Shown piece after piece: positions 22,789-61,977 of a DNA stretch of 64,000 nt. Numbering within the stretch: position 1 is the first letter of the stretch; each line of letters opens with the position of its first letter. The notes under the pieces are model-generated. The model was not told the origin of the DNA and searched no databases. It worked only from the letters and a program-made list of their open reading frames with translations. Source of the stretch: Candidatus Nomurabacteria bacterium (GTDB taxonomy: Bacteria > Patescibacteriota > Minisyncoccia > Phycocordibacterales > UBA9973); contig CALRDL010000001.1 in assembly GCA_943354905.1 (NCBI GenBank), positions 29,520 to 93,519 on the forward strand, read 5' to 3'. Made by a program: the position numbers and the translations under genes.

Positions 22789-22825
22789 ATTTGCTTAAAG
22801 TGTAATTTTATTATAGACTAACTAT

Positions 22826-24843: not shown

Positions 24844-24887
24844 AATTACGAATGATCAATTACGATTTAAATTCGTAATCCGTAATT
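24844..24887. terminator. Palindrome built from ATTACGA/TCGTAAT heptads between convergent genes
   Basis: Sequence aattacgaatgatcaattacgatttaaattcgtaatccgtaatt. Confidence 0.4.
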
Positions 24888-24899
24888 TCTAATTTTTAA

Positions 24900-26330: not shown

Positions 26331-26337
26331 CATAGAA

Positions 26338-27624: not shown

Positions 27625-27634
27625 TTTCTATGAT

Positions 27635-28603: not shown

Positions 28604-28640
28604 ATTTTAATTATAGCATTTTATTTACTAAAGCCTATGT

Positions 28641-30500: not shown

Positions 30501-30515
30501 AAATTTAGTATAACA

Positions 30516-31172: not shown

Positions 31173-31177
31173 TTTAA

Positions 31178-31243
31178 AATTACGAATTACGAATTACGAA
31201 TTTTTGTTCAAATATTTTATTATTAATTGTTAATTCGTAATTG
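31178..31243. repeat. Heptad array (ATTACGA)3 followed by an inverted TCGTAAT copy
   Basis: aattacgaattacgaattacgaattttt ... taattcgtaattg. Confidence 0.6.
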
Positions 31244-31250
31244 TTCATTC

Positions 31251-31682: not shown

Positions 31683-31687
31683 TGAGT

Positions 31688-31720
31688 CAATTACGAATTA
31701 ACAATTACGAATTTCGAATT
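31688..31720. repeat. ATTACGA heptad repeats (intergenic)
   Basis: Sequence caattacgaattaacaattacgaatttcgaatt. Confidence 0.55.
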
Positions 31721-31771
31721 ATTAACTCATAAATTATAAATTATCAATCGACTATTTTATTATAACATTAA

Positions 31772-32134
31772 TTACTCATTTGCCATTCTTGATTTTACGG
31801 TTTTCTGTATTTTTCCTATTATTTTTAGTATTTCTTCGCAGTCATTAAAAACAGGAGAAAGTTCTTCTTGAGTCATGTATTTCGCTTCTCTTAATAGAGA
31901 AAGCCAATATTTTGTTTCTCGAGCTTCTTTGTAGGCTATGGATAATTTTGAGATGAAGTCTTTTTTCGATTGACCACCTAGTGCTTCTTCTATGTTTGCA
32001 CCGATTGATGTTCCACTTCTTAAAAGCTGTTTAGATAAAATAAATTCTTTTTTTATTCCAATTAAATATTTATATAATTCAATAATTCTTACTGCAAATT
32101 TATAGCTTTTTTGTTGTATTATGTTTTCTTTCAA
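31772..32134 (-). CDS. Four-helix-bundle protein (23S rRNA intervening-sequence protein family)
   Basis: QLLRSGTSIGANIEEA...AYKEARETKYWLSLL. Apparent TTG start lying within the heptad repeat. Confidence 0.55.
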   Translation of the reverse strand: MKENIIQQKSYKFAVRIIELYKYLIGIKKEFILSKQLLRSGTSIGANIEEALGGQSKKDFISKLSIAYKEARETKYWLSLLREAKYMTQEELSPVFNDCEEILKIIGKIQKTVKSRMANE

Positions 32135-32165
32135 TTCGTAATTCGTAATTATTAATTCGTAATTT
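32132..32165. repeat. TTCGTAA heptad repeats
   Basis: Sequence caattcgtaattcgtaattattaattcgtaattt. Confidence 0.55.
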
Positions 32166-32175
32166 AGAATCTTTC

Positions 32176-33045
32176 CTATTCAGGTATTTCCCTATAGGGG
32201 TCTATGTAAGGCACCGTGTTTGTTTTCGTTGCTGTACTTTCTTTTGTGCTAGAGGAAAGATTCTTCAAGGTGTGTTCTGTTTCTACCGTTTTGTTGTGCA
32301 TTATTCCAGATAATTTTTGGATGAGTATCGGTTGGGCTGGCTGTTCAAGCAACATTGTCTTCTCTCTGATTTTTTTGAAAATTTCTTCGTTGACATCGCC
32401 CACCATACCTTTCAATTTCTCTCTAGATATATCCAAGTGGTCATTTAAATAATCTTCCAATCTCTCAGGGCTGATGGAGCCAATGATCAAATTCGTAACT
32501 GCTTTTTCAAAAACTCCCATTTGAGATACATTTAAATTGTACTTTTTGGATATATTGTAAACTGTAGCTTGATAATTTGAATCCGAAACGACTTTCAATA
32601 TTTCTTTTGGAAGTTTGGAAAATCTTTCGTTTTTCTCTTCATCTATGTTTATATTTGTTTCGTTCACATTTTCTTCTGAAATATCTTCTCCTCCACTTTC
32701 CTCTACTACATCAGCCAAGTTTGCGTTATAACTTTTAACCAAATCACCACGAACATTTTTTATTACTAAGTCATTTATTTCGAAAAGCATTTGGTCTAGT
32801 TTTTCGCTAGAGATAGAAATTTCTTTTTTTAAGACTTCTTGATATTCATCCGGATGAATGATGCCCAAGAGAACCAAAGTTGTATTAGAACCCAAAATTC
32901 CAATTTGTTCCTCATTCAAAGAATATTTCGCACTGATTGTCTTTAAACTTTCCAACCAAATCATACTGGAAAAAACTTCTTGCACGTTTGGTGGAAGTTT
33001 TGAGTAATATAGGGCTATTTTTTGTTGTAATTCTTGTTTATCCAT
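32176..33045 (-). CDS. Hypothetical protein with an internal duplication
   Basis: Two related ~90-aa halves. No family recognised. Confidence 0.4.
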   Translation of the reverse strand: MDKQELQQKIALYYSKLPPNVQEVFSSMIWLESLKTISAKYSLNEEQIGILGSNTTLVLLGIIHPDEYQEVLKKEISISSEKLDQMLFEINDLVIKNVRGDLVKSYNANLADVVEESGGEDISEENVNETNINIDEEKNERFSKLPKEILKVVSDSNYQATVYNISKKYNLNVSQMGVFEKAVTNLIIGSISPERLEDYLNDHLDISREKLKGMVGDVNEEIFKKIREKTMLLEQPAQPILIQKLSGIMHNKTVETEHTLKNLSSSTKESTATKTNTVPYIDPYREIPE

Positions 33046-43640: not shown

Positions 43641-46181
43641 ATGAAAAAAATAATATTTAGATACTTTTTTTTAGTTATATTTGCCCTAGTTCCGGTTTTA
43701 TCTGCTAACGCTGTGTTTTCTACTTGCACTTATACAGGTACTTGTAATTTACCTCAGAGTTCAGGTTGTCCGAGTGGTCAATATTGGAATTCCTCACTAA
43801 ACAGTTGTGCCATTAATCCAGTTGCTGTTTCTAGCAATACTCCCCCTGCTACCCCTACTCCCCCTGCTACTCCTCCTACCCCTACCCCAGCAAGCGATGT
43901 TTGTACTGGTGAAATTCGTACAGATATGGTTGCCGCTCAAAAATGTGCTGATTTAGCGATTACTAAAGGAAAAGCATTGGGATATGAAATAGATTGCAAG
44001 GTTATACAGTCTGGTTTGGCAGGATTTAGAGATCCAACATCAGGTCAAGGTTATGTTTTAAGTACTGATTGTACAGTCAATGGATCACCAGGTCACGGCG
44101 CGTATCTGCTTGCAGGATTTAAAGCAGCTCCAGCTTGTACTCCTGCACAAATGCAACGCATCGTTGCTTCAGGTTCTTCTAATACTGCTACAACTGAGGG
44201 GTGTAGCAATGCGATCGTTTCAAATGTTAATCCAGGATGGAATATCTTAGCAACAGAGCTTAGATATAGAGGTGCGGTTACTGATCCAAATCCTACACGT
44301 ACTCCCGCTACCATCCCTAACTGCACGACTAATTTTAGTGTGATTACAGGGAGTCCTTGCAGGGGAAATGTTGGAAGTGCAGGTAATACTACAGGTGGTA
44401 CGAGCGGAGACAGGATACTAGGTTGTGCCAGTACTTCTGGGGTCAGCACTATCACAGGTCAATCTTGTTCTGGGACTGTCTATTCTCTCGATAAAGACAA
44501 TGATGGTATTCCAGACGAGATAGATGACGAAGTGGATTTCATAGACAATGGCATAACAGCTCGCCCTCCTATATTTAGAACCACGAGAACAAATCCCCAA
44601 TGTTATGTTTTTACTCAGACATTACAAAATAACAGTACGGGTATTGAAGTATTTGCACTCACCTATGCTCTCAAACAAGAGGGATTTTTGTCCCAAACAA
44701 GTAGAGTGTTTGACACGACTGTAATGGTAGCTGTCAAAAGATTACAAGAAGCAAATAAAACTGAAATATTGAGTTTTCTCGGTCTTACCCAAGGAACAGG
44801 TGTAGTAGCAGAAAAGACTCGTGCATATTTGAATTCAAAATGTATCGTGCCTATGTCAGTGGTAACTGCAGAACAACAAGGTGGTTCCACTTCATGTGTA
44901 GCTCCTAAATCTGCTATTAAAAATGGCAAATATCAGTACACATTTACTAAAAATGTTGGAGGAAATTGGGTAGTTACACTCAATAACCCAGCATACAGTA
45001 CACCAAGTGATCCATATTATGTTCCAGCAAATATTTCTTTCACTGCGACCAATGCTCTTGATTTAAACAGACAAAATCAAGGTAAATTTAATTATCTACA
45101 AACATTACCAGGTACAGCTGTCGGAAACACTGAGTACCAAAATATCTTCGGCTCCTTCAATAATGCATATTATGACTGGGGCACGATGACAAAAGATGTG
45201 GTATGTACTACAACAGTAGCAATCGTAGTATTACCTGTTATTCCTCTCTCTCGATATGTAAAAGTTTCTATCGCAGATTGGGATACACTTCCTCTTGGAA
45301 TTCGTGAGATCACAGTATTAGGAGCAAATAACACTAAAGTTAGCCCTATATCTGTGAATATAACAAATATGGATGAATCGGGGTACCAAACCCCCTCCAA
45401 TCTAACCGACCGCAATGAAAATACTTACTGGAGGGCTATAAAGCATGTCTCCACCTGTGCTGTAAATACAGACTCGACAGCAGGTCGAGGTGCTGATACG
45501 AGCCCAGGTCGTGCCTGTGAAGTGTTAGGAGATTTACAAGTTATCACTCTCGATCTTGGTCAACTTGTAGCATTGGATCGAATAGCAGTAATGAATTACG
45601 GTCTCACTAATACACGAGTATTTGTGATTGAAGTAAGTAAAGATGGAAATTCATATACTCAGATTGCCGAAGTGCGTGCGCAAGTAAATGCACCAATTGC
45701 AGACAAAGGAATGGTCATTGGATTTATGAAGGACGCTGGCACTGTAGGTCCTCTTCCTTCCCTCCGCACTCTCACATCCATAAACGGTACTGCAGGAATT
45801 ATTGGTAATACCGTCACACTTACAGGTACAGGATTTACTCCTACTGGAAATAAAATTAAGTTTGGTAATTTAGGAAGTGAAAATAATCCTCAATATTCTG
45901 TACGGTCTACTGATGGAAAAACCTTGACATTTGCTGTTCCGGTTAGCAATTACGAGTCTTGTTGGAGACCTGTGATTGGAGCTGCTTGCGCGTTACCTAT
46001 CATACCTACTCAAACAGGTATTTACGATGTGTCCATAACAAATATTAATGGAACCAGTAATACACTACCGTTTGATGTTATTCCTGAGTGTCGTTATGGT
46101 GGTGCACAACGATTTGGTGAGAGTGAACTGATTTGCGGAAGGAGTGATAGAGCAATAGATGATAGATTCAGGCCCCAATAG
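43641..46181 (+). CDS. Secreted surface protein with a Pro/Thr-rich linker, a peptidoglycan-binding-like domain, an F5/8-type-C (discoidin)-like domain and an IPT/TIG-like domain
   Basis: Signal peptide. ALTYALKQEGFLSQ...VKRLQEAN resembles PG-binding domain 1. NENTYWRA...ITLDLGQLVALDRIAV resembles a discoidin domain. Confidence 0.45.
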   Translation: MKKIIFRYFFLVIFALVPVLSANAVFSTCTYTGTCNLPQSSGCPSGQYWNSSLNSCAINPVAVSSNTPPATPTPPATPPTPTPASDVCTGEIRTDMVAAQKCADLAITKGKALGYEIDCKVIQSGLAGFRDPTSGQGYVLSTDCTVNGSPGHGAYLLAGFKAAPACTPAQMQRIVASGSSNTATTEGCSNAIVSNVNPGWNILATELRYRGAVTDPNPTRTPATIPNCTTNFSVITGSPCRGNVGSAGNTTGGTSGDRILGCASTSGVSTITGQSCSGTVYSLDKDNDGIPDEIDDEVDFIDNGITARPPIFRTTRTNPQCYVFTQTLQNNSTGIEVFALTYALKQEGFLSQTSRVFDTTVMVAVKRLQEANKTEILSFLGLTQGTGVVAEKTRAYLNSKCIVPMSVVTAEQQGGSTSCVAPKSAIKNGKYQYTFTKNVGGNWVVTLNNPAYSTPSDPYYVPANISFTATNALDLNRQNQGKFNYLQTLPGTAVGNTEYQNIFGSFNNAYYDWGTMTKDVVCTTTVAIVVLPVIPLSRYVKVSIADWDTLPLGIREITVLGANNTKVSPISVNITNMDESGYQTPSNLTDRNENTYWRAIKHVSTCAVNTDSTAGRGADTSPGRACEVLGDLQVITLDLGQLVALDRIAVMNYGLTNTRVFVIEVSKDGNSYTQIAEVRAQVNAPIADKGMVIGFMKDAGTVGPLPSLRTLTSINGTAGIIGNTVTLTGTGFTPTGNKIKFGNLGSENNPQYSVRSTDGKTLTFAVPVSNYESCWRPVIGAACALPIIPTQTGIYDVSITNINGTSNTLPFDVIPECRYGGAQRFGESELICGRSDRAIDDRFRPQ

Positions 46182-46258
46182 ACAGTGTTTTTGGAAATAA
46201 TGTCTGGTTTGTGTCTACTAATGGAAGTTATATTTGGTCCGGGGGTACGAGAAAAGTT

Positions 46259-47122
46259 TCACCTTAAAGTTTTTACAAATTCTATCCAATCTTTGAGAGT
46301 TAATTCTTCCGCTCTTTTGTTCCCTAATAACACATAGGAGTTTCCTATGCCATAGGAAACTCCTATGTGTTTGAGGTTGCCAGACAGTTTTTTGCGCTTG
46401 TGAGCGAAGCCAGCTTTGACTATTTCCCAAAATTTTTGCTCAAATTCCAGACTGTTCAAAGCTTTATTTTGAACTTCGCTCCGTCCTCCCCCTTGCGAAG
46501 GGGGAGGTGTCCTGAGTTCATCGAAGGGCGGAGGGGGTAAAGTAATGAAATTTTTTCTTGAAATATTATTTATACTGATGACTGCCGAGTCTACCTTTGG
46601 TGCAGGAGAGAAATATCTGGCTGGAACTTTCATAATAAGTTTCGGATCACCATAAGCTTTTACAGAAATAGAAAGAATACTTTCCTTGCCATCGCGAGCC
46701 ACTATTCTTTTTGCCACTTCATTTTGGACCATCAGCACCATGCTAGTAGGCTGATGTTTGTCTGTTAAAAACTTTTTCAAAATCGCTCCAGTTATATTAT
46801 ACGGAATGTTGGCGATGATTTTATATTGCGTTAGGTCTTGCCTAACGCAATCAAAGTCGAGAATATCTTCATGTACTAGTACGAGAGAACGAGACTCTAT
46901 TTCTTTTGCAAATTTATCTTTCAAAAATTCAAAAAGATCATTATCTTTTTCTACGGCTATAACTTTTGCTCCTGTTTGTAAAAGTTTCTCAGTGAGTGCG
47001 CCCTTACCAGGACCTATTTCCAAGATTACATCATCTTTTTTTATCTCTCCTGCTTTGACTATATTATTCAAGGCTGGAACCGATTTTAAGAAATTTTGTC
47101 CCAATGATTTTTTTATTTTCAT
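46259..47122 (-). CDS. rsmA: 16S rRNA (adenine1518/1519-N6)-dimethyltransferase, with two in-frame palindromic inserts near the C-terminus
   Basis: LGQNFLKS and LEIGPGKGALT motifs. Confidence 0.85.
   Translation of the reverse strand: MKIKKSLGQNFLKSVPALNNIVKAGEIKKDDVILEIGPGKGALTEKLLQTGAKVIAVEKDNDLFEFLKDKFAKEIESRSLVLVHEDILDFDCVRQDLTQYKIIANIPYNITGAILKKFLTDKHQPTSMVLMVQNEVAKRIVARDGKESILSISVKAYGDPKLIMKVPARYFSPAPKVDSAVISINNISRKNFITLPPPPFDELRTPPPSQGGGRSEVQNKALNSLEFEQKFWEIVKAGFAHKRKKLSGNLKHIGVSYGIGNSYVLLGNKRAEELTLKDWIEFVKTLR
46332..46368. repeat. Family C palindrome, in frame in rsmA
   Basis: Sequence acataggagtttcctatgccataggaaactcctatgt, translated as HIGVSYGIGNSYV. Confidence 0.7.
46482..46539. 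repeat. Family B palindromic element, in frame in rsmA
   Basis: Sequence cgtcctcccccttgcgaagggggaggtgtcctgagttcatcgaagggcggagggggta. Confidence 0.7.
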
Positions 47123-47141
47123 TGTTTGTATATTAGCATAA

Positions 47142-47308
47142 AAAACTTGTTGCAGGCGTGTTTTTTAGATTTTAAATTACAAAACTTGTCGTAGGCGCAC
47201 TTTTCAAAGGGTCTTTCGCAGGACGTCGGTCCGAGAAGGAGCAAAAAATCAACAGATTTTTATGCGACCCTTTGAAAAGTTGGGTCAAGAAAGAGTTTTG
47301 TAATTTAA
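47142..47308. repeat. Nested direct- and inverted-repeat structured element between rsmA and pcrA
   Basis: Direct repeats aaaacttgttgcaggcgtg and aaaacttgtcgtaggcgcac. Inverted repeats ttttcaaagggtc / gaccctttgaaaag and ttaaattacaaaac / gttttgtaatttaa. Inner palindrome ggacgtcggtcc. Confidence 0.5.
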
Positions 47309-47311
47309 ATT

Positions 47312-49462
47312 CTATATATAAATTGTTTTTATTCCACCTTTCTCCCCTTCTTTTTCGAGTAGGTCTGCTGGAATGTCAGAAATAAATTCTGAAGGAGCAT
47401 TTATATTTCTTGATCCAAATATTGTACGGAAATTCGCAAAAGAAAGGAATAATTTTTCTTTGGCTCGAGTGACAGCGACGTAGAAGAGCCGGCGTTCTTC
47501 CTCCCTGTCTGCGCCAGCTTCCTCATTGCGTCTTTCATGTGGGAAGAGTCCATTTTCAAGACCGGTAACAAAAACATATTTGAATTCGAGACCTTTGGAG
47601 GCATGCACAGTCATGAGTTTCACCCCCTCTTTTTTTTCTTTTTTATTTTCTTCATTCATCAAAGAATCTTGATCGGAAGCGAGTGAAGCATCTTCGAGAA
47701 GTTTCTCTACCCCTTTTCCATCTTCTAAATTGTCATATTTGAGTGCCAGAGTTGCAAGCTCTTTTATGTTTTCTAGTCTTTCCAAGTCTTCATCAGTGCC
47801 ATTTTTTAATTCCGACTCTATACCAGACTTTCTGATGACGAATTTTATGATGTCACTTGCTTTGGATTTTCCTATCTCTGTTTTTATTTCATCTAAGATG
47901 TCATAAAAACTATTTAATTTTATTTGCATTTTTATCGGCAAGTTTCCTGTCTCTCCAGCGAAAATTTTTACCAAAGTAACTTTACCTATACCTCTCGCTG
48001 GGAAATTTATAATTCTTTTTATATCTGACAAACTATCTCTATTTAAAGCTACTCGCAGATAAGCCAAAGTGTCTTTGATTTCTTTTCTTTCAAAGAATTT
48101 CACACCTAAAACTTGGTATGGGATATTGTAACGAAGCATAGCCTCCTCGAGTACGCGAGATTGAAAGTTTGCTCGATATAGTATTGCAATTTCAGAAAAG
48201 GCAGGCAGAAGTGTCTCCGAGGGAACCCTTGGTAGGAGCGACGGCGACGGACAGAGAAAATTTTCAGCAGAAAATTTTCGTGGTGAGTCCGGAGACACTT
48301 CTGCCGAACTGTCTTGCAATTCTAAAATCTTCGTCGCCACAAAATCCGCCTCCTCTGTTTCATCAAGAGCTTCATACAGACCTATCTTCTCCCCTACTGC
48401 GTTATTTGTAAATAAATTTTTGTCGGGACGATATTTATTTTTCTTGATTATTTCATTCGCAGCCTCGAGGATATTTTTTGTAGATCGATAATTTTGTTCA
48501 AGCATCACTATTTTTGCATTTGGATAATCCTTTTCAAAACTCAAAATGTTTTTCAAGTTTGCTCCTCTCCAACTATAGATCAATTGATCGCTGTCCCCGA
48601 CTACGGCTATATTTTTATGATTCTCGGCGAGCATTTTCGACATCAAATATTGCACCTCATTCGTGTCTTGATACTCATCTATGTGAATATGGGACCAACG
48701 TTCTTGGTATATTTTTCTAATTTCCTCGTTATCTTTTAATAGTTTAGTTGCTTTCAATAAAAGATCGTCAAAATCTAGAGAATTTTCTTTATTTTTTTTC
48801 TCTTCATATATTCGCCAGACATTTGCCACCAATTCTTGAAAAGAGTTTGTAATATTTTCTCGATATTTTTCTAAAGTATTAAATTTTCCTTTTTCAATAC
48901 TGATAATATTTTTGATTTTCGCTGGAGGGTGTTCCTTCGGGTCAAAGTTGAGTTCTTTTAAAGCGTCTTTGATTAAGCTTTTCGCGTCGGGTTCATCCAT
49001 GATGGTAAAATATTTTGTCAGTCCGAGCAGGCGTGCATTTTCTTTGATGATATATACTCCGAGTGAGTGAAATGTAGAAACAAAAGGAGTGGGGCCGAGA
49101 TGTTGGGCTCTGTCACCACGAAAATTTTCTGCTGAAAATTTTCTCTGTCCGTCGTCGTTCAGAAATGTACCTCCGGGTACATTTCTGCTCCCAAGGGTTC
49201 CATATCCCAACATCTCGGCCCCACCGACGAAATTCTCCTGTATGGCTCCAAGTATTCTCTCTCGCATTTCTTTGGCCGCTTTGTTGGTAAATGTTACAGC
49301 CAAAATTCTTTCTGGGGCGATGCCGTTTTTGATCAAGTTTACTATGCGGTGAGTGATAGTCTTCGTCTTCCCCGCTCCCGCGCCAGCAATTATCAAAAGC
49401 GGCCCATCCATATGCATAGCCGCTTCCTTTTGTTCTTTATTTAGACCTTCTAGGTGTTTCAC
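47312..49462 (-). CDS. pcrA: UvrD/PcrA-family ATP-dependent DNA helicase, with two in-frame TIR-bounded inserts
   Basis: GAGAGKTKTITHRI Walker A, TFTNKAAKEMRERI, and the motifs VSTFHSLG, VGDSDQ, YRST and VHASKGLEF. Confidence 0.9.
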   Translation of the reverse strand: MKHLEGLNKEQKEAAMHMDGPLLIIAGAGAGKTKTITHRIVNLIKNGIAPERILAVTFTNKAAKEMRERILGAIQENFVGGAEMLGYGTLGSRNVPGGTFLNDDGQRKFSAENFRGDRAQHLGPTPFVSTFHSLGVYIIKENARLLGLTKYFTIMDEPDAKSLIKDALKELNFDPKEHPPAKIKNIISIEKGKFNTLEKYRENITNSFQELVANVWRIYEEKKNKENSLDFDDLLLKATKLLKDNEEIRKIYQERWSHIHIDEYQDTNEVQYLMSKMLAENHKNIAVVGDSDQLIYSWRGANLKNILSFEKDYPNAKIVMLEQNYRSTKNILEAANEIIKKNKYRPDKNLFTNNAVGEKIGLYEALDETEEADFVATKILELQDSSAEVSPDSPRKFSAENFLCPSPSLLPRVPSETLLPAFSEIAILYRANFQSRVLEEAMLRYNIPYQVLGVKFFERKEIKDTLAYLRVALNRDSLSDIKRIINFPARGIGKVTLVKIFAGETGNLPIKMQIKLNSFYDILDEIKTEIGKSKASDIIKFVIRKSGIESELKNGTDEDLERLENIKELATLALKYDNLEDGKGVEKLLEDASLASDQDSLMNEENKKEKKEGVKLMTVHASKGLEFKYVFVTGLENGLFPHERRNEEAGADREEERRLFYVAVTRAKEKLFLSFANFRTIFGSRNINAPSEFISDIPADLLEKEGEKGGIKTIYI
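48203..48305. repeat. Family D element, in frame in pcrA
   Basis: TIRs ggcagaagtgtctccg and cggagacacttctgcc. Core gaaaattttcagcagaaaattttc. Confidence 0.65.
49091..49222. repeat. Family D element, in frame in pcrA between the ERIL and VSTFHS motifs
   Basis: TIRs ggggccgagatgttggg and cccaacatctcggcccc. Core gaaaattttctgctgaaaattttc plus the palindrome cagaaatgtacctccgggtacatttctg. Confidence 0.7.
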
Positions 49463-49496
49463 TTTTCTAGTCTAACATATTCTTTTAAATAAGAGC

Positions 49497-49910
49497 CTAT
49501 TCTAAACTAAAATCAATTAATTTTTGTTTTACCAAATCATCTGGAACTTCAAAACCCGGCATATATTCCACCTTTTCTGTGTAGTTGATATCATCAAAGT
49601 AGGCTAATTGATTACGAAAAATTTTCGCATTAAATTCCCCAGCAAAAAGCTCTTCAGCTTTTTGAGATATTTCTTTCACAGTAAAATGATCTTTTAGTAT
49701 AAAATATAAATCAACATAATCTTTCCATTTATTGCGTCTGCTCAAGGCAAATGCCTTCATCGCAGCTAGTGTCAAAAGAGTAGGGAGCTTTAAATAATAT
49801 CCAAATTTTTCTGGATAAGAAATCTCGTAATTAAATTCTTTCAATAAAGATAATAGATTTGATTGTTCTTCAGTTAAAATTTCTTTATGTGATGCTTGAA
49901 TATTTATCAA
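49497..49910 (-). CDS. Hypothetical protein, possibly the C-terminal part of a nucleotidyltransferase-like (AbiEii-like) protein
   Basis: SRRNKWKDYVDLYFIL motif. Overlaps the upstream ORF by 26 nt, suggesting a split gene. Confidence 0.3.
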   Translation of the reverse strand: MINIQASHKEILTEEQSNLLSLLKEFNYEISYPEKFGYYLKLPTLLTLAAMKAFALSRRNKWKDYVDLYFILKDHFTVKEISQKAEELFAGEFNAKIFRNQLAYFDDINYTEKVEYMPGFEVPDDLVKQKLIDFSLE

Positions 49911-50190
49911 AATATAGTTGAAAATAATTCCTAACTTGTTTATCGTAATTCTGTCGATTAAATTTATCAGGTTTAGATTTTTCGCGAAAAATTGAAGCTA
50001 CCTTCGACATACTTAGGATTTGAATCATTTTCTGGACATCATCCCAATTGCCATAATTGAGGACATGTTCTACGATCGATGCTTCATCGAGCTTGTCCAA
50101 ATTTTCTTTGCTAACATACCAAATCAAATATGGCCTTTGTTTTATAAATTCGTGTATGGTCATAACACATACATTATACCATTTTTCCAC
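49885..50190 (-). CDS. Hypothetical protein (101 aa), possibly the N-terminal part of a frameshifted gene
   Basis: Overlaps the downstream ORF. No family recognised. Confidence 0.3.
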   Translation of the reverse strand: MEKWYNVCVMTIHEFIKQRPYLIWYVSKENLDKLDEASIVEHVLNYGNWDDVQKMIQILSMSKVASIFREKSKPDKFNRQNYDKQVRNYFQLYFDKYSSIT

Positions 50191-50204
50191 TAAAAATCCA
50201 AAGT

Positions 50205-50255
50205 AAATATCAAGGTGAAACCTTAAGAATTCAAAAAGGTTTCACCTTGATATTT
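50205..50255. repeat. Perfect 20-bp inverted repeat with an 11-nt loop
   Basis: aaatatcaaggtgaaacctt-aagaattcaaa-aaggtttcaccttgatattt. Confidence 0.6.
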
Positions 50256-50270
50256 ATTAACACAAAAAAC

Positions 50271-50298
50271 AAAAAGTCCCCTTCGGGACTTTTTTTAG
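50271..50298. terminator. Bidirectional rho-independent terminator
   Basis: aaaaagtcccc-ttcg-ggggacttttttt. Confidence 0.6.
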
Positions 50299-50313
50299 CT
50301 ACGTTAAGTTTTA

Positions 50314-53300
50314 TTAGAATACATCTTCTGCTCTTCCTCGTAGAATTTTTGTTGTCACTGTGTCATCAAAAAGTATTCCTTTCTCTGCTAATTCAGCATG
50401 GTGTGCTACAAACCAAGTAGATAGTTCTTTATTATTATTTATAATCGAAGTTATTTCTGAAGACGATAAATGTTCCGAATTTGAGAGAGCTTGTAACATT
50501 ATTGTAGGATTGTTAAATACACTAGATAGATGTATCACATCCCCGGGATTAAGAATTCTAATATCTCCACTTGCCCACCCCAAATTTTTCAGTTCTGTGG
50601 GTGTCATTTTTGCATAAATGTCTTTTATTGCATCAATAACATGAGTTCTCTTTCCTTCATCCATCCCTTCCAATAAATGTTCTGCGTCCAATTGATTTTC
50701 AATGATTTTCCAAGTACTGTCGCCATAGGCAACAGTATGATCAATGAGAGTTGGCGTTGGGGCAAATACAGGCAGGCCTGGATATGTTAGCGTTGGTGGT
50801 GTAATGGTGGGTGTATCAAATAATTTTCCTCCGATCAGCCACCCGACAGATCCACCAGCCAAGGCAGCTGTCGTTTTTCTAAACATTTTCTTTATTCTTT
50901 CTTTATCTACTTCTGATTCCACTGTCTCATTCATACCATTTATTTCTGTGGCTAATCTGTTCGATAGACGATTTGAAAATCTCAGTGTTGGGTTGTCTAA
51001 ACGCGCCCCAGCCACAACTTCTCTGGCTGTTAAAGCATTATCTCTTTCTAGGATCATCAAAGCGATTTTTCCTTCATCTCCGCGTGTATGTAAGTTTTTT
51101 ATTGCCACACCCTTTTCTACTTGGAGCATTCGTAGTCTCGCTGCTTCTTTTTTGATTTCTTCAGGGGTAATAGAATTTAAGTACATATCTCGAGCGTCAT
51201 CTGTGATGAAATTTCTGTTTTTCAATTCTTTACTCATTTTTTGTACTAGATTTCCTTTGTGTCCTAAGAGTTTTGTAAATTGTTCCAATCCAGCCTCTAC
51301 TCCCACATAAGTACCTACTCCACCCATGACTGCTCGAGCTCCTACGATACCAGCACCTACTGCAGTACCTCCAGTAAGAATACTAGCACCACCTAAAAGC
51401 AAGCCAGTGACCAAGCGAGTCTTGGTAAGCTGTCTCCATTTAGTTTTCATTTTTTCGAAAATATTTTTCTCAATACCATTTACAGATCTGTTGTCTATGT
51501 TGTCTTGCTCTTTGCTTAAAAGATCCACAATTTTTTGAGTTATTTGTTCACGGCCTTGTTCTGCTGTCATCTCTCCTTTTTTTATTTTCTGAACTATTTC
51601 ATCTTCATGTTTTCTGATTTCCAAGATTCTATATTTAGAAAGCTTTTCTTGGTATTCTTTTCTTATTTTTTCAATTTCTAAAAGACCTTCTTTTCCGCCA
51701 AAATCCATTTTCTTCCCATCGAATTCCAATTTTCTTCCAAACATTTTACCAAACAACCCTCTAAACACGTTTCCACGCATTCTCTTTGCTTTTAGATATA
51801 AGTCTCTCAGTTCATCGAGTTTTTTTAGATCCTCAGACGTAAAAATCGGCATAGGTTCTACTACTATCGGTGGTGGTGGTCCAGGAGGAGTTTCTTGTGG
51901 TGTTGTATTCGGCGTTACTTCTGTTACTTTTGATATTTCGGTTTGGTGTAGATTTATGAATATAATTAAATTTTTTATAGCTAATTCATCTCCTTGTTCT
52001 GCTGTCTCTAATAGAATTATGAGTTGAGCTTTGAGATTTTCACCCATTGGCAATATCTCATGCTTTTTCATAGTGTCTGCTCGACTATTTATCAATATAA
52101 GTAAAGTATTGATGGCCCCACTATCTCCATTTTTAATTTGCCCTAACAATAATACAACTGTTATTCTTAGAGATTCGATTTTCTTTTTTTCTTTATCGTC
52201 TGGCTTTGTTTCTGGTACAGTTTTTGTTTCAGGAGTTGTTTCTTTATTCTTTTTACTATTCTTACTATCTAATTTTTCCTCAAGTTTTGTACGTTCCTTT
52301 TTTTTTGCCTCTAGCGAGCTGTATAAGGCAGCTTGATCTTCTTTTTGTGTAGAAGATTTATATTTTTCATCCAGCTTAAGAATTTCTTCCTTAAGTTTTT
52401 TCAGTTTAGCCATATCTAATTCTTCCTCAAGTTTATCATATTTCTCTTGTTTTGCATTTATCACGCTGTATAAGGCAGCTTTTTCAATCACTTTGTCTCT
52501 GGCAAGCAATTTATATGTTTCATCCAGCTCAAGAATTTCTTCCTTAAGTTTTTTCAACTTATCCATCTTCTTTTTATTTTTTTCAGCCTCATCTTCTTCA
52601 GCTTTGACTGGAGTTGTTTCTTTTTCAGGTACAATGGATATAGGTGTTTTAGTCGCCTCACTTTTCTCAGCTTTTTCATTATTATTCTCATCTTCTAATT
52701 CTTTCTCAAGTTTATCATATTCCCCTTGTGCCAGCTTTTTCATTTCCTTGAAGGTAATTTTTGAATTCCTTCCTAAAGAATGTTTAATCAGACTATCCAG
52801 CTCAAGAATTTCTTCCTTAAGTTTTTTCAACTTATCCATCTTCTCTTTACTTTTTTCAACCTCATCTTCTTTAGCTTTGTCTGGATCTGCTTTTTTTTCA
52901 GATTCAGTGGTTGCAGGTGTTTTAGTCGCCCCACTTTCTTCATCTTCTTTTTTTTGTTCGAGTCTAGTTAGTTCAAATTTAGCAAGTGCAAGCTTTCCTT
53001 TATTTTTTGTTTTTTTGGAATGATTCCTGCCAATATTCTTTTTTTTTAATGTTTCAATTGTTGTTTTAAGATTAGAGATCTCTAAATCAATACTACTAGG
53101 AGCTTCTCTAGGAACTTCCTTTGTATTTTCAGCTGGATTTTTATTTTCCTGTTTTGTTGGTTCAGGTTCTGTTCCAACTTGTGGAGACTTTGGCAGAGTT
53201 TCTTCTTCCTCAGGCTCTGGTTTTGATTCAGCTTCTATTCCTTCTTCTGTTTGAGGTTTTGCAGGCGTTTTAGCCGCCTCACTTTCTTCAGCTTCTTTTT

Positions 53301-53861: not shown

Positions 53862-54005
53862 ATTTTTTTATTTAAGCTAATAAATTATTGTTTATATTAT
53901 ACACCAATTAAATATGTTTTAGATATTTGTAATACCATTATACCATAAAGATGTGCATTTTGTCAAGTATTTATTTTTAGATTTTTTAAATCAAAACGCA
54001 AAAAG

Positions 54006-54050
54006 GCCGTACGCTGGAGTTGGGAATACCAACGGCGTACGGCCTTTCGA
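54006..54050. terminator. GC-rich hairpin at the left edge of the high-GC island
   Basis: aggccgtacgctggagttgggaataccaacggcgtacggcct. Confidence 0.45.
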
Positions 54051-54106
54051 TTGATTTGGTTGATGTGTGTGCCGGCCCACGATTGTAGGTCGGCAATAAA
54101 GAACAA

Positions 54107-55141
54107 TTAAAAGGCTTCGATTTTCACCTGAGCCCCGGCTTTTTTTAGCCGGTTTTCAAGGTACTTGAGCCCCTTTTCCATCAGCGCTGGTCGTGAGACC
54201 GGGAGCGGATGGAGGTGGACAGTGAGTCCTTTCAAGTTGAGTGCGCCGATGTCGGCGATCTGGTCTAACTTTGACCAGTTCGCCTCCTCAAGAAGCTCTG
54301 GGTTTTTGTAAACCGAGGCTTCAGGAAGATTTTCGAGCCCATCTGTAAAAATGTGGAGCTTAGGACGTGAGTCCTTGTTCTCCATCATTTCTTTTAGGAT
54401 GGGCATGAGGCCACGCAGGACGGAGCTCTTGGGCTTTGCTTTCCCTTCCACTAGCCAGTCTGTGCTGGCTTTTACTTCGGCTTCCATACCAAGATTTGGA
54501 CGTTGCCGTCCCCCTTGGTAAGGGTCCTCGGAAATGTGATATAGGTTAAGCGCGATTTTGTTTTTGCCGTCAGCTCCGAGCTGTACGGCTCGGGTCTCGT
54601 CAACAATCTGACGAACCCGTTTGGCTAAGTCGTCACTGACACCCTCGGTGGTGTCGAGCGCGACTCCAAACGCCCGCTTGATCGCGACCGGGCCGGTGAA
54701 GGCCTCGATCGCTTTTGCCAATTCGGGCTGGGAGCCGGTGAGCTCTTTCCTCCGATTCGGCCGGGTCGTTTGCTCGAACTTTAGCCAGCCTTTCAGCTGG
54801 AAAATGTTCGAGGATAGGATCTTGTCACCGTCCTTTGTGACGAAGGTCAGTTTCAGTCCATACCCACCCGGCTCTTCCGGCGTGGGGCGTTCGGCGCCGT
54901 AGCGTTTGAGGCTTTTGGCGCTGAACTTCTTTGATTCTTGCAAGAAGATGTCCGTTAAGCGGACACCTTCCGTGGAAACGAGGGTGCTGGCGTCGATCGC
55001 CAACCCCCCGTCCGCTTCGACTTCCCGTTCGAAAACGAGGAAGTCTTCTTTGGGGGTGTACTTCTCCCCCCAAAGGAACATCGTGAGTCCGATCGCCGCA
55101 GCCAGTATGGCTACGGACGACAGGACCAGTTTTTTGTTCAT
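54107..55141 (-). CDS. GC-rich hypothetical exported protein, possibly vWA-like
   Basis: N-terminal anchor LVLSSVAILAAAIGLTMFLW. PKLHIFTDGLEN resembles a vWA segment. Assignment weak. Confidence 0.45.
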   Translation of the reverse strand: MNKKLVLSSVAILAAAIGLTMFLWGEKYTPKEDFLVFEREVEADGGLAIDASTLVSTEGVRLTDIFLQESKKFSAKSLKRYGAERPTPEEPGGYGLKLTFVTKDGDKILSSNIFQLKGWLKFEQTTRPNRRKELTGSQPELAKAIEAFTGPVAIKRAFGVALDTTEGVSDDLAKRVRQIVDETRAVQLGADGKNKIALNLYHISEDPYQGGRQRPNLGMEAEVKASTDWLVEGKAKPKSSVLRGLMPILKEMMENKDSRPKLHIFTDGLENLPEASVYKNPELLEEANWSKLDQIADIGALNLKGLTVHLHPLPVSRPALMEKGLKYLENRLKKAGAQVKIEAF

Positions 55142-55162
55142 TGCTTCTGTTCCTTTCCGCCC

Positions 55163-56773
55163 CTAGAACTTAGGGGCCCTCCACGCTTTTACCGGCGCGG
55201 GGGCGGGTGGTGGTGGAGGTGCGGGTTTTGCAACCTCAAGGGCCGCTTTCTCCGCCTCCGCTTTTTTTCCTGCAATCAGTTCTTCCGTGATTTTTGCAAG
55301 GGTTTTTTCCGTTTCCGCTATCGTCATGACGCGGACTGAAATGTTTTCGTTTGCCGGCGTCGTCGTGACGGCTTCCATGTCGGCGATAAGGCCGGCAGGG
55401 AGATCGATCGAGAACACCGGCTTGTTGGCGTTGAAATTGGCGACGAGTTCGTCGTCGCTTTCCGTTGAGTTGCTGGTTCTTGCCACCATTTTTTCAATGG
55501 CTTCGCCGAATTCATCGACGAACCACTTGGGTGACTGGCCGAACTCATGTGCGAGCCGGCGAATCGTGGCGATGCCGTGGTTGTGGGTCTCTTTGGCTTC
55601 TTTTGCCAGCGCGAGCTGGTGCTGGAATTCTGTGTGGTAGACATTGTAAGCGCCCTGTGCGTCCGGAGACGTGACAGTCGCTTCCAATTCCACTAACTGC
55701 TTTGCCAACGCTTCCGCCTCTACCTTCTTGGCCATGGCGGACTCGGCTTGCGGGTGGGTGGTGGTTGAAAACACCGCTTCCCAAGCGTACAATACCGCGA
55801 ACACTAACACTACACCAAACGATCCGGCGATGTCGCCAGTCTGAGTCATCATAACCCAGCGGATGCCGAGGGTTCCGAGGATAGTCATGGCCATTAGCCA
55901 GAACCACATCCTGTGCTTAAACTCCGCGTCGCCAGACAGAGTGAAAACCGAGACTGACTTACCCGTCAAGGGGTCTACCCCGTTCGGAAAAGTTTCTCTC
56001 AGTTGCTGAGTAGCGTTGCAAAGGTCGAGTTCCACCTTCATGGCGGAACCAGCGAAGTAGGTGGTTATGGATCCCGCCATGCTCACTAGGAGCGAGAAGG
56101 CGAGGGCCATCGATTGGTTTCCTTGGTCTTGAAGTATTGGTGCGTTGAACACCACTTCAAAAAACAAGGATATCGCGAATGCCGCGGTCACGGGGAGCCA
56201 AGATGCTGGTCCAGTTTCCGGAGCATTGATTGCGAGGTTTGGGTTGCCGTTGATGCCGATTGCCAACCGGCGTGCCTCAAGGAAGGCATCTTTTGCCTTG
56301 ACCTGGAGGGTGTCGATGGCGGCGAGGCCCGCCTGGGCGAAGCCTTTTAGCTTGCTGGCGAAGTCCGTGGTGAGTTGGTTGGGGTTCGGTGTTGGCACAT
56401 CCTGTGCCTGACGAACCTTTTGAATCGCGTTGCCGAGCGTCTGCTCGGCAAAGGCTTTGTATCCAGCGAAGAGATCGCTGAACATCTGGGCCACTTCTTC
56501 GAACAGAACCGATATTTGACCCGGGGCATACGTGCCCCCGAGCCCCTCTACTGCCTGGACGAGTGCTGGCATGTGCGGGGTGACGACGACCTGAGGGTCG
56601 AGGGTTACCACACTTCTAACGACGGGCTGGATGTTGTTGTTTTCGGTCACTGCGGCCGGAGCCGAGGTGCCGATTTTTAAGGACGTAGTGCCCCGTCCGG
56701 GCACCAGCTGGAGCAGTCGCCTGCTCCAGCTTTTGAGTTTTTCTCTCATTTTTTTTACCTTTTCTTTTGTCAA
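55163..56773 (-). CDS. GC-rich hypothetical membrane protein with four predicted transmembrane helices and a poly-Pro C-terminus
   Basis: 536-aa ORF with transmembrane segments at ~200-330. C-terminal PAPPPPPAPAP. Confidence 0.45.
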   Translation of the reverse strand: MTKEKVKKMREKLKSWSRRLLQLVPGRGTTSLKIGTSAPAAVTENNNIQPVVRSVVTLDPQVVVTPHMPALVQAVEGLGGTYAPGQISVLFEEVAQMFSDLFAGYKAFAEQTLGNAIQKVRQAQDVPTPNPNQLTTDFASKLKGFAQAGLAAIDTLQVKAKDAFLEARRLAIGINGNPNLAINAPETGPASWLPVTAAFAISLFFEVVFNAPILQDQGNQSMALAFSLLVSMAGSITTYFAGSAMKVELDLCNATQQLRETFPNGVDPLTGKSVSVFTLSGDAEFKHRMWFWLMAMTILGTLGIRWVMMTQTGDIAGSFGVVLVFAVLYAWEAVFSTTTHPQAESAMAKKVEAEALAKQLVELEATVTSPDAQGAYNVYHTEFQHQLALAKEAKETHNHGIATIRRLAHEFGQSPKWFVDEFGEAIEKMVARTSNSTESDDELVANFNANKPVFSIDLPAGLIADMEAVTTTPANENISVRVMTIAETEKTLAKITEELIAGKKAEAEKAALEVAKPAPPPPPAPAPVKAWRAPKF

Positions 56774-57252
56774 GTTCTGCCAAAGACTGCTGGGTTCTTC
56801 TTCCAGTCACCTTTGAAGTAGTACAAGATATTAGTACTATGAATTAACCCATATTTATAGTATAGCACTTATTTATCTAAATGTCAAGCTGAATATTGCT
56901 ATGTTTTATAAAATGTAGTGTAATAAAGACCATTGAGTTATCCCCACATTCCCTCTTTTCGATTGACTTTCGACCCTCTTTTGTTATCATATAGGAGTAC
57001 CCATACACCTAAATAAATAGGTGTTCGGGTATAGTTCTGAATAGAGGAGATGGTACAAGATGGCAGATAAGCGGACCCGACAGTAACCATCGTAAGAATC
57101 TTTTTTTACAGCACAATTTCGGTCGTACTGTATTCTAGCCTTACATTAAAAGGTCAGAAAGGAAATCTTACGGTAAATTTGTTTGTTTTATAAAAAACCT
57201 ATTTAACATATACAGTGCTACGCAGACTAAATCTTTTGCCCTAAAGGGTATT

Positions 57253-60252: not shown

Positions 60253-61977
60253 AACACAATCAAAAAAAATTTAAAAATAGATCTACTGAATAAAATCCCA
60301 AAAGAAGTTTCACATGTAACAAGTACGCTCAGAAAAGCAGGTTTTGAGGTTTTTTTGGTTGGAGGTTGTGTAAGGGATTTATTTCTTGATAGAGAACCAA
60401 AGGATTGGGACGTCACTACTAATGCCAAACCAGAGCAGATCATAGCCCTCTTTGAAAAGACTGTATATGAGAATACTTTCGGTACAGTCGGCGTAGTTGT
60501 TTCCCGTGAAACGGCTACACCTTCAAATCTCCACCTTGTGGAGGGGGAGATGCCGAAGGCAGAGGGGGTAATAGTGGAAGTCACCCCATACAGAATTGAA
60601 GCAAAATATAGCGATTTTAGACATCCTGATGAAGTAAAGTTTAGTGATAATCTAACAGATGACCTTAAAAGACGTGACTTCACCATTAACGCAATGGCTA
60701 TAGATTCTAAAGGACCCGCCCAAAGTCTAAAGGACATTGAGTCTGGCTGGCATCTAACTGACCTTTATGAAGGTATAAAGGACATAGAAAATAAAACATT
60801 ACGGACAGTGGGGAGTGCGGATGAGAGATTTAATGAAGATGCATTGCGAATGCTTCGGGCTGTGCGTTTTGCTTGCCAATTAAATTTTTCTATTTCTTCT
60901 GAAACTACAGAAAGTATTTTAAAAAATTCTAATTTGATAAAAGAAATTTCTTCAGAAAGAATTCGAGATGAATTTATAAAAATAATTTTATCAGATAATC
61001 CGGCAAGTGGTTTAGTTATGTTGCAAAAATTTGGATTATTAAAAAATATTATTCCTGAGCTTGAAGAGGGGATAGGTTGCGAACAATTAGGAGAACATAT
61101 CTATGATGTTTGGGACCATTTGCTTCATGCTCTCCAGCATGCAGCGGACAAGAAATGGCCTTTAGAAATAAGGCTTTCTGCTCTTTTTCATGATATTGGG
61201 AAGCCAAAGACTCGACGAATCGCTTCGCAGGAAAATGCTTTCCGTCATTCGCACTCTGTCCTGGAAGTGCAAGATAGTTCTGTTCGTAGCGAAGATTCCT
61301 CCAAGCATATTCCTGCTACACTCTCTCCCCGTGAGTCCGAGAATATTTTGTCCCCCAAGAGTAAAAAGAAATATACATTTTATGGTCATGAAGTTGTCGG
61401 TGCAAGAATAACGAAAAAAATAATGGAGAGATTAAAATTTTCTAAAAAAGAAATTGATCTGGTGGAAAAACTTGTTCGCAACCACATGTTTTTTTCTGAT
61501 ACTGAGCTTATCACTCTCTCTGCCGTGCGAAGAGTCGTTACTAAAGTCGGAGTAGATAATATTTGGTTTCTAATGAATGTCCGTGAATGTGATCGAGTGG
61601 GAATGAAAAAGAAAGAAGCTCCTTATCGCTTGCGCAAATATTTTGCTATGATCGAAGAAGCCCTCCATGACCCTATTTCCGTAGGAGCCTTGAAAATAAA
61701 CGGTGAATTTATGATAAAGGACATGTCCATTAAACCCGGACCACGCATGGGTTGGATGTTGAACGCACTTCTTGAAGAAGTCCTTGAAGACCCGAAAAAA
61801 AATACGATAGAATATCTAAAGGACAAAATTTTGGAACTCGAAAAACTTTCTGACGCAGAATTGAAAGCCCTTGGGGATAAAGGGAAAGAAAAAAAAGAAG
61901 AACTCGAAGAAGAAGAAGTCGAAAAACTTCACGCTAAGCATGGAGTGAGATCGGGTAAAGGTGAAGCAAAGAAGTAA
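60253..61977 (+). CDS. cca: tRNA nucleotidyltransferase (CCA-adding enzyme, head domain plus HD domain) with two in-frame inserts and an acidic C-terminal tail. The start is uncertain (non-ATG).
   Basis: LVGGCVRDLFLDREPKDWDVTT, RDFTINAMA, HDIGKP. The ORF-table start at 60184 lies inside tRNA-Gly, so a downstream TTG near 60253 is assumed. Confidence 0.75.
   Translation, partial: NTIKKNLKIDLLNKIPKEVSHVTSTLRKAGFEVFLVGGCVRDLFLDREPKDWDVTTNAKPEQIIALFEKTVYENTFGTVGVVVSRETATPSNLHLVEGEMPKAEGVIVEVTPYRIEAKYSDFRHPDEVKFSDNLTDDLKRRDFTINAMAIDSKGPAQSLKDIESGWHLTDLYEGIKDIENKTLRTVGSADERFNEDALRMLRAVRFACQLNFSISSETTESILKNSNLIKEISSERIRDEFIKIILSDNPASGLVMLQKFGLLKNIIPELEEGIGCEQLGEHIYDVWDHLLHALQHAADKKWPLEIRLSALFHDIGKPKTRRIASQENAFRHSHSVLEVQDSSVRSEDSSKHIPATLSPRESENILSPKSKKKYTFYGHEVVGARITKKIMERLKFSKKEIDLVEKLVRNHMFFSDTELITLSAVRRVVTKVGVDNIWFLMNVRECDRVGMKKKEAPYRLRKYFAMIEEALHDPISVGALKINGEFMIKDMSIKPGPRMGWMLNALLEEVLEDPKKNTIEYLKDKILELEKLSDAELKALGDKGKEKKEELEEEEVEKLHAKHGVRSGKGEAKK
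60531..60570. repeat. Family B element (half-deleted form), in frame in cca
   Basis: Sequence ccaccttgtggagggggagatgccgaaggcagagggggta. Confidence 0.65.

Follow-up and report, generated by a model that had tools for sequence, protein, structure and literature searches.

The stretch analysed here (the window) comprises 64,000 nucleotides (nt) of a Candidatus Nomurabacteria genome (contig CALRDL010000001.1 of assembly GCA_943354905.1, positions 29,520 to 93,519) and includes a pcrA/uvrD helicase gene that carries two palindromic inserts in frame, referred to below as copies A and B. Both belong to a repeat family with a covarying fold; its genic copies show a pronounced bias in reading frame, those in PcrA lie in loops of the protein, and closely related genomes differ in which sites are filled and by what. 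The inserts are probably Patescibacteria-specific (Paceibacteria/Nomurabacteria group), non-autonomous, hairpin-forming selfish repeats of approximately 100 to 136 bp that are translated as tolerated loops. The family is widespread and apparently undescribed; no description of in-frame palindromic repeats was found in the literature on Patescibacteria, Parcubacteria, or the candidate phyla radiation.

Palindromic inserts in an intact PcrA helicase

The host gene encodes a PcrA/UvrD-type superfamily-1 helicase, and the pseudogene reading can be rejected, because its 716-amino-acid (aa) open reading frame (ORF) is unbroken and aligns over the entire protein with PcrA of structure 1pjr (E value, 9e-147). 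The Pfam domains UvrD-helicase (1e-84) and UvrD_C (1e-64) are both full length, and the Walker A sequence GAGAGKT, the DEYQD motif, and the other catalytic columns are invariant in an alignment with 112 orthologues. The orthologues, 113 in all, are 70-79% identical to the window protein, and the closest of them come from metagenome-assembled Candidatus Nomurabacteria, Paceibacterota, and Patescibacteria genomes. The gene, its inserts, and their parts are as follows (R1 is the covariance model built from 28 copies of the family, which, when run on the window, detected copies A and B, one weak relative at 47198-47281, and nothing else):

47312-49462, minus strand: pcrA/uvrD host gene, intact, 716-aa ORF with a GTG start
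49089-49224, plus strand: copy A, 136 nt (R1, 63 bits; E value, 9e-15)
49089-49107, plus strand: 5' arm of the copy A outer stem, GTGGGGCCGAGATGTTGGG, forming 19 perfect base pairs with 49206-49224
49206-49224, plus strand: 3' arm of the copy A outer stem, CCCAACATCTCGGCCCCAC
49120-49143, plus strand: core hairpin of copy A, GAAAATTTTC-TGCT-GAAAATTTTC, two 10-nt self-complementary halves
49160-49187, plus strand: extra 12-bp hairpin of copy A, CAGAAATGTACC-TCCG-GGTACATTTCTG, in the loop of internal helix 4 (the small GC helix)
48204-48305, minus strand: copy B, 102 nt (34 codons), canonical class a (R1, 126 bits; E value, 4e-32)
48204-48219, plus strand: outer-stem arm of copy B, GGCAGAAGTGTCTCCG, forming 16 perfect base pairs with 48290-48305
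48290-48305, plus strand: outer-stem arm of copy B, CGGAGACACTTCTGCC
48256-48279, plus strand: core hairpin of copy B, GAAAATTTTC-AGCA-GAAAATTTTC
47198-47281, minus strand: probable diverged third relative (R1, 22.5 bits; E value, ~1e-3, a weak match; DNA fold, z = -6.4)

A preliminary description of this DNA, made from the sequence alone, had reported two MITE-like inserts bounded by inverted repeats and lying in frame in the pcrA helicase. This much is confirmed: the inserts are small and repeat-derived, with perfect arms of 19 bp in copy A and 16 bp in copy B, and the gene that carries them is intact and evidently functional. The shared core and the octapeptide RKFSAENF encoded by both copies likewise stand; however, the two copies are oppositely oriented (48241-48286 and 49113-49158 are 98% reverse-complementary over 46 nt), and the octapeptide is the same only because the core itself is palindromic, consisting of two copies of the self-complementary decamer GAAAATTTTC. 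The plus strand of copy A reads CAC GAAAATTTTC TGCT GAAAATTTTC TCTGTCCG, of which the gene reads the reverse complement (..GTLGSRNVPGGTFLNDDGQRKFSAENFRGDRAQHLG..), whereas the family reference strand of copy B is the minus strand, so that the gene reads it directly (..AEVSPDSPRKFSAENFLCPSPSLLPRVPSETLLP..). Copy A adds approximately 41 aa relative to insert-free orthologues; its extra hairpin is a 25-nt insertion at positions 67-68 of the R1 model, and the corresponding subfamily is also found in other genes and genomes (L023 and L050). The core pattern GAAAATTTTCNGCNGAAAATTTTC has exactly two matches in the window, at 48256-48279 and 49120-49143, and none in shuffled sequence with 3 mismatches permitted. 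The inserts have a GC content of 52-54% (compared with 36% for the genome and the window) and fold far more stably than shuffled sequences, both as RNA (copy A, -75.7 kcal/mol, z = -9.8; copy B, -47.1 kcal/mol, z = -6.7) and as DNA (z = -12.2 and -5.6, respectively). The weakly matching segment at 47198-47281, which lies between the stop codon of pcrA and the start codon of rsmA, has the same three-way fold, in which an outer stem of 15 bp encloses two hairpins (AAAAATC-TGTT-GATTTTT and GGAC..GTCC); it also emerged from the inverted-repeat search and is probably a diverged third relative.

Two ORFs antisense to pcrA, 48169-48411 and 49089-49352 (plus strand; 80 and 87 aa, respectively), overlap the inserts and owe their existence solely to the absence of stop codons from either strand of the palindromic elements; annotation is likely to mistake them for genes.

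Copy A had also been placed inside the conserved motif Ia, with the implication that essential helicase motifs tolerate insertions. This placement does not hold, as both inserts fall between motifs, in two loops that are short in the solved PcrA structure. Site A (residues 73-126 of the window protein) corresponds to a 9-residue loop of 1pjr, located after the helix that follows motif Ia (TFTNKAAKEM) and before the PFVSTFHS strand. Site B (residues 383-421) corresponds to a 7-residue loop between a helix and the AILYRAN strand, just before the LYRAN motif. Since the inserts occupy loops that are short in the solved PcrA, catalysis is presumably unaffected. In an AlphaFold2 model, the predicted local distance difference test (pLDDT) score is 24-31 over residues 79-122 and 387-419, and both segments are flanked by confident secondary structure; the inserts are predicted to be disordered loop expansions rather than motif interruptions, and these loops would be surface-exposed.

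Frame use, covariation, and nucleotide-level constraint

Further copies were looked for by scanning one genome per species for the 20-base core GAAAATTTTCNNNNGAAAATTTTC, which returned at least 119 loci. About 72 more true copies were recovered among the matches listed (the counts of 72, 73, 51, and 22 copies used here all refer to these matches, and 73 includes both window copies); they share the sequence CAC-[hairpin]-TCTGTCCGTCGCCGTCGCTCCTNCCAAGG(G/C)TT and all come from metagenome-assembled Patescibacteria, and the remaining loci are unrelated chance matches in other phyla. One 813-kb contig holds at least 5 copies. Subterminal sequences of the family are CTCGGACTCACCAC ... CCAAGGGTTCGCTCGAG. 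Rfam searches recognized no family on the elements in an E-value scan of 46000-50500 and only tRNAs in a gathering-threshold scan of the whole window; the elements thus match no known structured RNA in Rfam, such as a self-splicing intron or a ribozyme. A scan of viral contigs with the extended core gave no matches and thus no evidence of a phage vector.

Approximately 70% of the copies (51 of 73) are inserted in frame in long ORFs, and the other 22 are intergenic or located at gene ends. Three proteins recur as hosts: PcrA, at site A and, in both orientations, at site B; RsmA, where the insert directly precedes YKIIANIPYN; and Fmt, where it directly precedes PDFFLVVAYGKIIP. About 12 further cases are single. 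The host frame is maintained in each of the 51 genic copies, none of which has a stop codon. An element normally offers four stop-free reading frames out of six, and the genic copies use them in the ratio 45:5:1:0, the favoured frame specifying a hydrophilic peptide (..TLGRSDGDGQRKFSAENFRGE..); corrected for orthologues, the ratio is approximately 15:2:1:0 over at least 18 distinct sites, according to a rough hand count. Judging from these sequences, the frame bias points to ribosome read-through and to filtering at the protein level.

The fold of the family was derived from 28 class-a copies in a gap-free alignment of 106 columns. RNAalifold returned a three-way junction that consists of an outer stem of 16-17 bp, a 3-bp helix (ACC/GGT), a 10-bp core hairpin, and a 2-bp GC hairpin. 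Across the family, the outer stem varies from 9 to 25 bp and is variable in sequence but always paired, closing a conserved core of approximately 70 nt. Double changes were found at 18 of the 32 pairs, including 15 of the 17 in the outer stem, and two internal helices covary as well. The proportion of paired cells was 95.8% (83.6% in shuffled alignments), the double-change cells numbered 120 (compared with 32), and none of 500 shuffles matched any of the observed covariation measures; as a control, sliding the 3' partners by 1-3 columns reduced pairing to 36-58%. The invariance of the core hairpin reflects ascertainment through the exact search pattern and is uninformative either way. The terminal repeats, which had been noted to differ between copies A and B, do differ in sequence; they are not two unrelated ends, however, and represent one and the same outer stem, which is free in sequence and constrained in pairing. 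Outer-stem subfamilies exist and partly track the host sites. Such paired, sequence-variable stems suggest that the element is recognized or maintained as a folded single strand.

In 8 orthologous PcrA site B copies, the third codon positions of identical residues agree in 84% of cases in the core (a figure that excludes the search pattern) and in 50% of cases in the adjoining host gene, the sequence of which is highly conserved. Because synonymous sites are so much better preserved in the core, either the constraint on the element acts on nucleotides or the copies are homogenized. The mismatches in the stems are also strand-specific. On the reference strand there are 51 A.C and only 10 G.T mismatches (an A.C mismatch is a G.T wobble on the opposite strand), and the ratio is 34:7 in reverse-coding, 4:1 in forward-coding (a small sample), and 13:2 in non-coding copies. 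As it holds in all three contexts, the asymmetry follows the element and not the host transcript, and mutation bias linked to transcription or selection on mRNA was rejected as its sole cause. This suggests a life cycle of the element in which one specific strand folds.

Turnover at shared sites and competing explanations

The PcrA orthologues range in length from 645 to 774 aa, with nearly all of the variation confined to sites A and B. Insert-free proteins have ..EIEKNAKGQDKIPFVSTFHS.. at site A and an equivalent span of 26-31 aa at site B, whereas most orthologues are filled at these sites by at least five unrelated palindromic families, and site B of some proteins carries two or three inserts in tandem. 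The alternative, raised at the outset, of a lineage-conserved PcrA insertion domain is half right: the same two loops are filled in most orthologues, but their occupants are unrelated DNA repeat families that are read in both orientations and also occur in other genes and between genes, and so do not constitute a protein domain. The peptide families encoded at sites A and B include the following:

..GQNVLERTLGRSDGDGQRKFSAENFRGESENILSE.., with the reverse-strand reading SDSPRKFSAENFLCPSPSLLPRV
GVSQADGPRGSAPRARGDSDP, of which GSLSPRARGALPLGSSACETP looks like the reverse-strand reading (by hand back-translation)
FSQVLGSPGPYPGQTIRKSI, of which FENGLAGGGTQESEDLSKSI may be the reverse-strand reading
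FSSxRPSRDTERDPxDKKIE
HSPLAGGEE..PAKGG

At the DNA level, further palindromic families besides that of R1 are:

CCTCCCCC..GGGGGAGG
CCCGCCCGAAC..GGGCGGG

Pairs of orthologues with 93-96% identity outside both sites differ in whether a site is filled or in which family fills it. Site A holds family 2 in P0014 and is empty in P0041; it holds family 1 in P0005 and is empty in P0096; P0061 and P0115 differ at both sites. The DNA of the P0005/P0096 pair shows a net difference of 102 nt, corresponding to a whole class-a element, and rearrangement is evident directly upstream, in sequence that is complementary in part to the flank on the downstream side. In the P0014/P0041 pair, the gain is only 78 nt, although the palindrome there is approximately 108 nt long. 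In the P0005/P0096 genome pair, the RsmA hot spot of one genome is filled by a family-1 element and that of the other by an unrelated palindrome with a 23-bp stem, the left arm of which is still present in the family-1-bearing genome. The "empty" RsmA hot spot of a related genome (L123, 2567-2640) has the structure AGCTATAAGCTA-TTAGCTAAA-AGCTATAAGCTA (SYKLLAKSYKL), a 12-nt direct repeat around a small perfect palindrome, which is a possible footprint of a lost element.

The flanks of the elements conform to a TTC|element|TTC consensus, with C at position -1 in 43 and T at position +1 in 53 of the 72 copies and TNC on both sides in 24, and TCGCTC repeats flank several intergenic copies. The TTC consensus could resemble a short target-site duplication; in filled and empty alleles that are 88-96% identical, the local sequence is too rearranged for clean boundaries or a duplication to be read. 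Another possibility considered was that the outer stem is simply host sequence, produced by inverted copying during insertion or by templated correction that lengthened a near-palindrome. The net gain of 63-78 nt in some filled/empty pairs, smaller than the palindromes of 96-108 nt, and the additional partial complementarity of the flanks would fit this origin, but the gain amounts to a complete element, approximately 102 nt, both in L120 and at site B of PcrA.

The reading that best accommodates these data is that of a translated, neutral or tolerated, and mobile repeat. The element would propagate as selfish DNA, and the copies to persist would be those whose insertion placed a stop-free frame in a permissive surface loop of a housekeeping protein; transcribed and translated together with that protein, they would extend it by a disordered loop of 30-45 aa with a high content of Gly, Ser, Asp, and Arg. 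An alternative is that the element serves its host in cis as a structured RNA or DNA module (in mRNA stability, RNase III processing, ribosome pausing, or as a DNA signal). The covariation in the outer stem and two internal helices, the 84% synonymous-site identity of the core as opposed to 50% in the host gene, and the retention at the same sites among orthologues only 70-79% identical would all be expected of such a module, which we nevertheless regard as unlikely, given that relatives 93-96% identical do without the element or have an unrelated family at the same site, that both orientations occur within one gene and other copies in intergenic DNA, that the wobble asymmetry tracks the element's own strand in all three contexts, and that Rfam offers no match. 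It is quite improbable that the insert is a functional peptide module (e.g., an RKFSAENF binding loop) whose DNA palindrome is incidental: the strong bias towards one frame, the conserved peptide, and the recurrent placement in the same loops of DNA- and RNA-acting enzymes speak for it, but the same DNA is read in two orientations with peptides that differ outside the octamer, 22 of the 73 copies are non-coding, synonymous sites are conserved and stems covary, the segments are predicted to be disordered, and unrelated families replace one another at the same sites. The idea that the inserts never reach the finished protein, whether through intron-like excision, cleavage by RNase III with subsequent ligation, or translational bypassing, has very little to recommend it. 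The very stable stems would juxtapose both flanks, and in some yeast mitochondria GC-rich mobile inserts of AT-rich genes are bypassed; nonetheless, every genic copy keeps the frame and lacks a stop codon, and one benign peptide dominates frame usage, none of which would be required if the element were excised, and neither a ribozyme nor an intron model matches.

Several points weigh against the selfish-repeat reading as well. Many copies are orthologous, and their shared descent inflates the bias in frame use, the counts of covarying pairs, and the asymmetry of the wobbles; the conservation of synonymous sites together with stem covariation fits a host-beneficial RNA or DNA function equally well. 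Identical flanking 3-mers are present in only 9 of the 72 copies, too few to establish a target-site duplication. Neither a transposase nor an autonomous partner came to light, the window containing only an IS66-family fragment and full-length partners not having been searched for. The AlphaFold2 model, based on 113 sequences, is moderate overall (mean pLDDT, 66.6), and ribosomal read-through of stems of -47 to -76 kcal/mol is something we infer from frame retention and frame bias in the sequences.

The repeated colonization of two loops, the tandem or nested arrangements, and the strand-specific wobble leave room for structure-targeted insertion. A rather doubtful extension of the selfish-repeat reading would be that Paceibacteria harbour a class of structure-defined mobile elements specialized for ORFs, whose several unrelated families home repeatedly to the same few codon positions of housekeeping genes (possibly via pre-existing hairpins or their remnants), swap like cassettes, and are recognized or maintained as a folded single strand of one polarity, DNA or RNA, by a novel insertion mechanism in place of a conventional transposase that acts on conserved inverted-repeat ends. 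Such a strand would explain both the variable but paired stems and the wobble asymmetry intrinsic to the element.

Known repeat systems and other palindromes of the window

The Rickettsia palindromic elements (RPEs), reported by Ogata et al. in 2000 and 2002, provide an analogue. Both are palindromic repeats of 100-150 bp, many of which lie in frame in housekeeping genes without breaking the ORF; both encode a conserved peptide at sites that fit the protein fold, come in several families per genome, and inhabit reduced, AT-rich genomes, and a mobilizing enzyme is known for neither. RPE-1 to RPE-10 are reported in frame in unrelated housekeeping genes, at fold-compatible sites and with conserved peptides (PMC10969869, PMC1458961). 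The Patescibacteria elements belong to another phylum and have no demonstrated sequence relationship to the RPEs, so that they are analogues and not members of that group. They also differ in that approximately 70% of the recovered copies are genic, compared with approximately 10% (53 of 526) in R. bellii (PMC1458961), that at least five families reuse the same two loops of one protein, sometimes in tandem, that the outer stems are sequence-variable but covarying, and that the palindromic core gives the same octapeptide both ways.

The label MITE-like (miniature inverted-repeat transposable element), applied to the inserts in the preliminary description, suits them in part. Like MITEs, they are small (102-136 nt here, compared with less than approximately 500 bp), multicopy, and repeat-derived, encode no transposase, have terminal inverted repeats and the potential to form folded RNA, produce occasional in-frame fusions, and possibly have a short flanking direct repeat; intragenic, ORF-fusing copies are documented for the bacterial MITEs ERIC, Correia/NEMIS, BOX, Nezha, and QMITE1 (PMC10969869). 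The terminal repeats of classical MITEs, however, are conserved within a family, match a parent insertion sequence, and are accompanied by a clear target-site duplication, whereas the Patescibacteria elements vary at their termini and are conserved in the interior, an arrangement atypical of a classical MITE; their flanks show no more than a TTC-like consensus, and they have no known parent insertion sequence. Terminal repeats of classical MITEs serve as conserved transposase-binding sites.

The GC clusters and "byp" elements of yeast mitochondria are likewise GC-rich, palindromic, mobile inserts inside the genes of an AT-rich genome. They are bypassed or lie outside reading frames, whereas the Patescibacteria inserts keep the frame and are stop-free, which would imply read-through. 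Repetitive extragenic palindromic (REP) sequences and bacterial interspersed mosaic elements (BIMEs), associated with REP-associated tyrosine transposases (RAYTs; Y1/HUH), and palindrome-associated derivatives of the IS200/IS605 insertion sequences are also hairpin-defined repeats in which pairing outweighs sequence, and the strand asymmetry observed here would fit a single-strand intermediate of that kind. REPs, however, are extragenic sequences of 20-40 nt with a GTAG or CGTC head (PMC3733652), whereas the Patescibacteria elements are at least 100 nt long and 70% genic, and their stem ends, as far as listed and without a dedicated motif count, mostly begin with runs of G, A, or C (such as GG.CA..) rather than with GTAG or CGTC. 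No RAYT or TnpA gene is present in the window, to which the search was confined.

If the selfish-repeat reading is correct, such elements would, to a major extent and to this day, be shaping the proteins of one of the largest bacterial radiations and would account for many of the lineage-specific insertions and length differences in the housekeeping proteins of these bacteria; insertions of this kind should then not be taken for functional domains when genes are annotated or structures predicted. The thousands of assembled genomes, with sites that are filled, empty, or swapped among close relatives, would serve as a natural experiment that could shed light on how the elements move and why proteins tolerate them, questions never resolved for Rickettsia. 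The covarying stems and the conserved core, as captured by model R1, provide a handle for a genome-wide census.

The inserts in PcrA are one instance of a genome-wide habit, as GC-rich palindromes are present in other ORFs of the window: four in DNA polymerase I, three in RsmA, and one each in RuvB, the CCA-adding enzyme, and an unassigned ORF. In polA (9368-11977, minus strand), the four inserts are separate and in frame, and a gap in the Pfam match to the 5'-3' exonuclease domain coincides with one of them. In rsmA (46259-47122, minus strand), which encodes a 287-aa rRNA dimethylase, the third insert occupies the position, before YKIIANIPYN, that is the site of the RKFSAENF element in other genomes. 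These palindromes and related hairpins are:

~10669-10719 and 11156-11213: short hairpins in polA, CCTGCCCGAC..GGGCGGG and CCCGCCCGAAC..GGGCGGG, respectively
10823-10932: 110-nt element in polA with 18-bp perfect terminal repeats, AGCAGAATACGAATTTAG / CTAAATTCGTATTCTGCT
11484-11592: double hairpin in polA
46329-46371: rsmA insert 1, a 21-bp perfect palindrome, also at 15201-15240
46465-46544: rsmA insert 2, CCTCCCCCTT..AAGGGGGAGG..GGCGGAGGGGGTA, with relatives at 614-692, 11488-11526, and 60520-60592
46816-46848: rsmA insert 3, GCGTTAGGTCTTGCCTAACGC, also in ruvB at 14762-14794
4193-4249: third copy of the CCCGCCCGAAC...GGGCGGG hairpin, in frame in a 230-aa ORF (4070-4762, minus strand) without a Pfam match
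22717-22790: very stable intergenic double hairpin (-50 kcal/mol over 74 nt) with stems CCCTCTCCTT..AAGGAGAGGG and CCCAGA..TCTGGG, in what may be the replication-origin region, directly upstream of dnaA (21293-22642, minus strand)
50204-50256: intergenic 21-bp perfect palindrome, TAAATATCAAGGTGAAACCTT / AAGGTTTCACCTTGATATTTA

The last of these lies beyond two ORFs located directly upstream of pcrA, a truncated AbiEii-like nucleotidyltransferase toxin ORF (49497-49910, minus strand) and a small ORF that overlaps it (49885-50190, minus strand). The IS66-family DDE transposase ORF of the window (2045-2881, minus strand; 278 aa) is probably truncated and is located next to a tRNA gene (1844-1916); the usual target duplication of the IS66 family is 8 bp, which does not match the flanks of the palindromic elements. 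A 2.7-kb island at 54000-56800, with a GC content of 57% compared with 36% for the genome, was possibly acquired horizontally; an rRNA origin was rejected, as Rfam finds none at 54-56.8 kb. Its two ORFs (54107-55141, 344 aa, and 55163-56773, 536 aa; both on the minus strand) have no Pfam match, and the larger one encodes predicted membrane segments and a Pro/Ala-rich tail. Finally, AT-rich repeats of AATTACGAATT / AATTCGTAATT units, in direct and inverted orientation, are scattered over 24800-32200 (e.g., at 24836-24910, 31156-31413, 31687-31725, and 32123-32176), where they flank genes resembling those of conjugation or type IV secretion systems, including a TraG P-loop ORF (28641-30500) and a pilin-like ORF (26338-27624).

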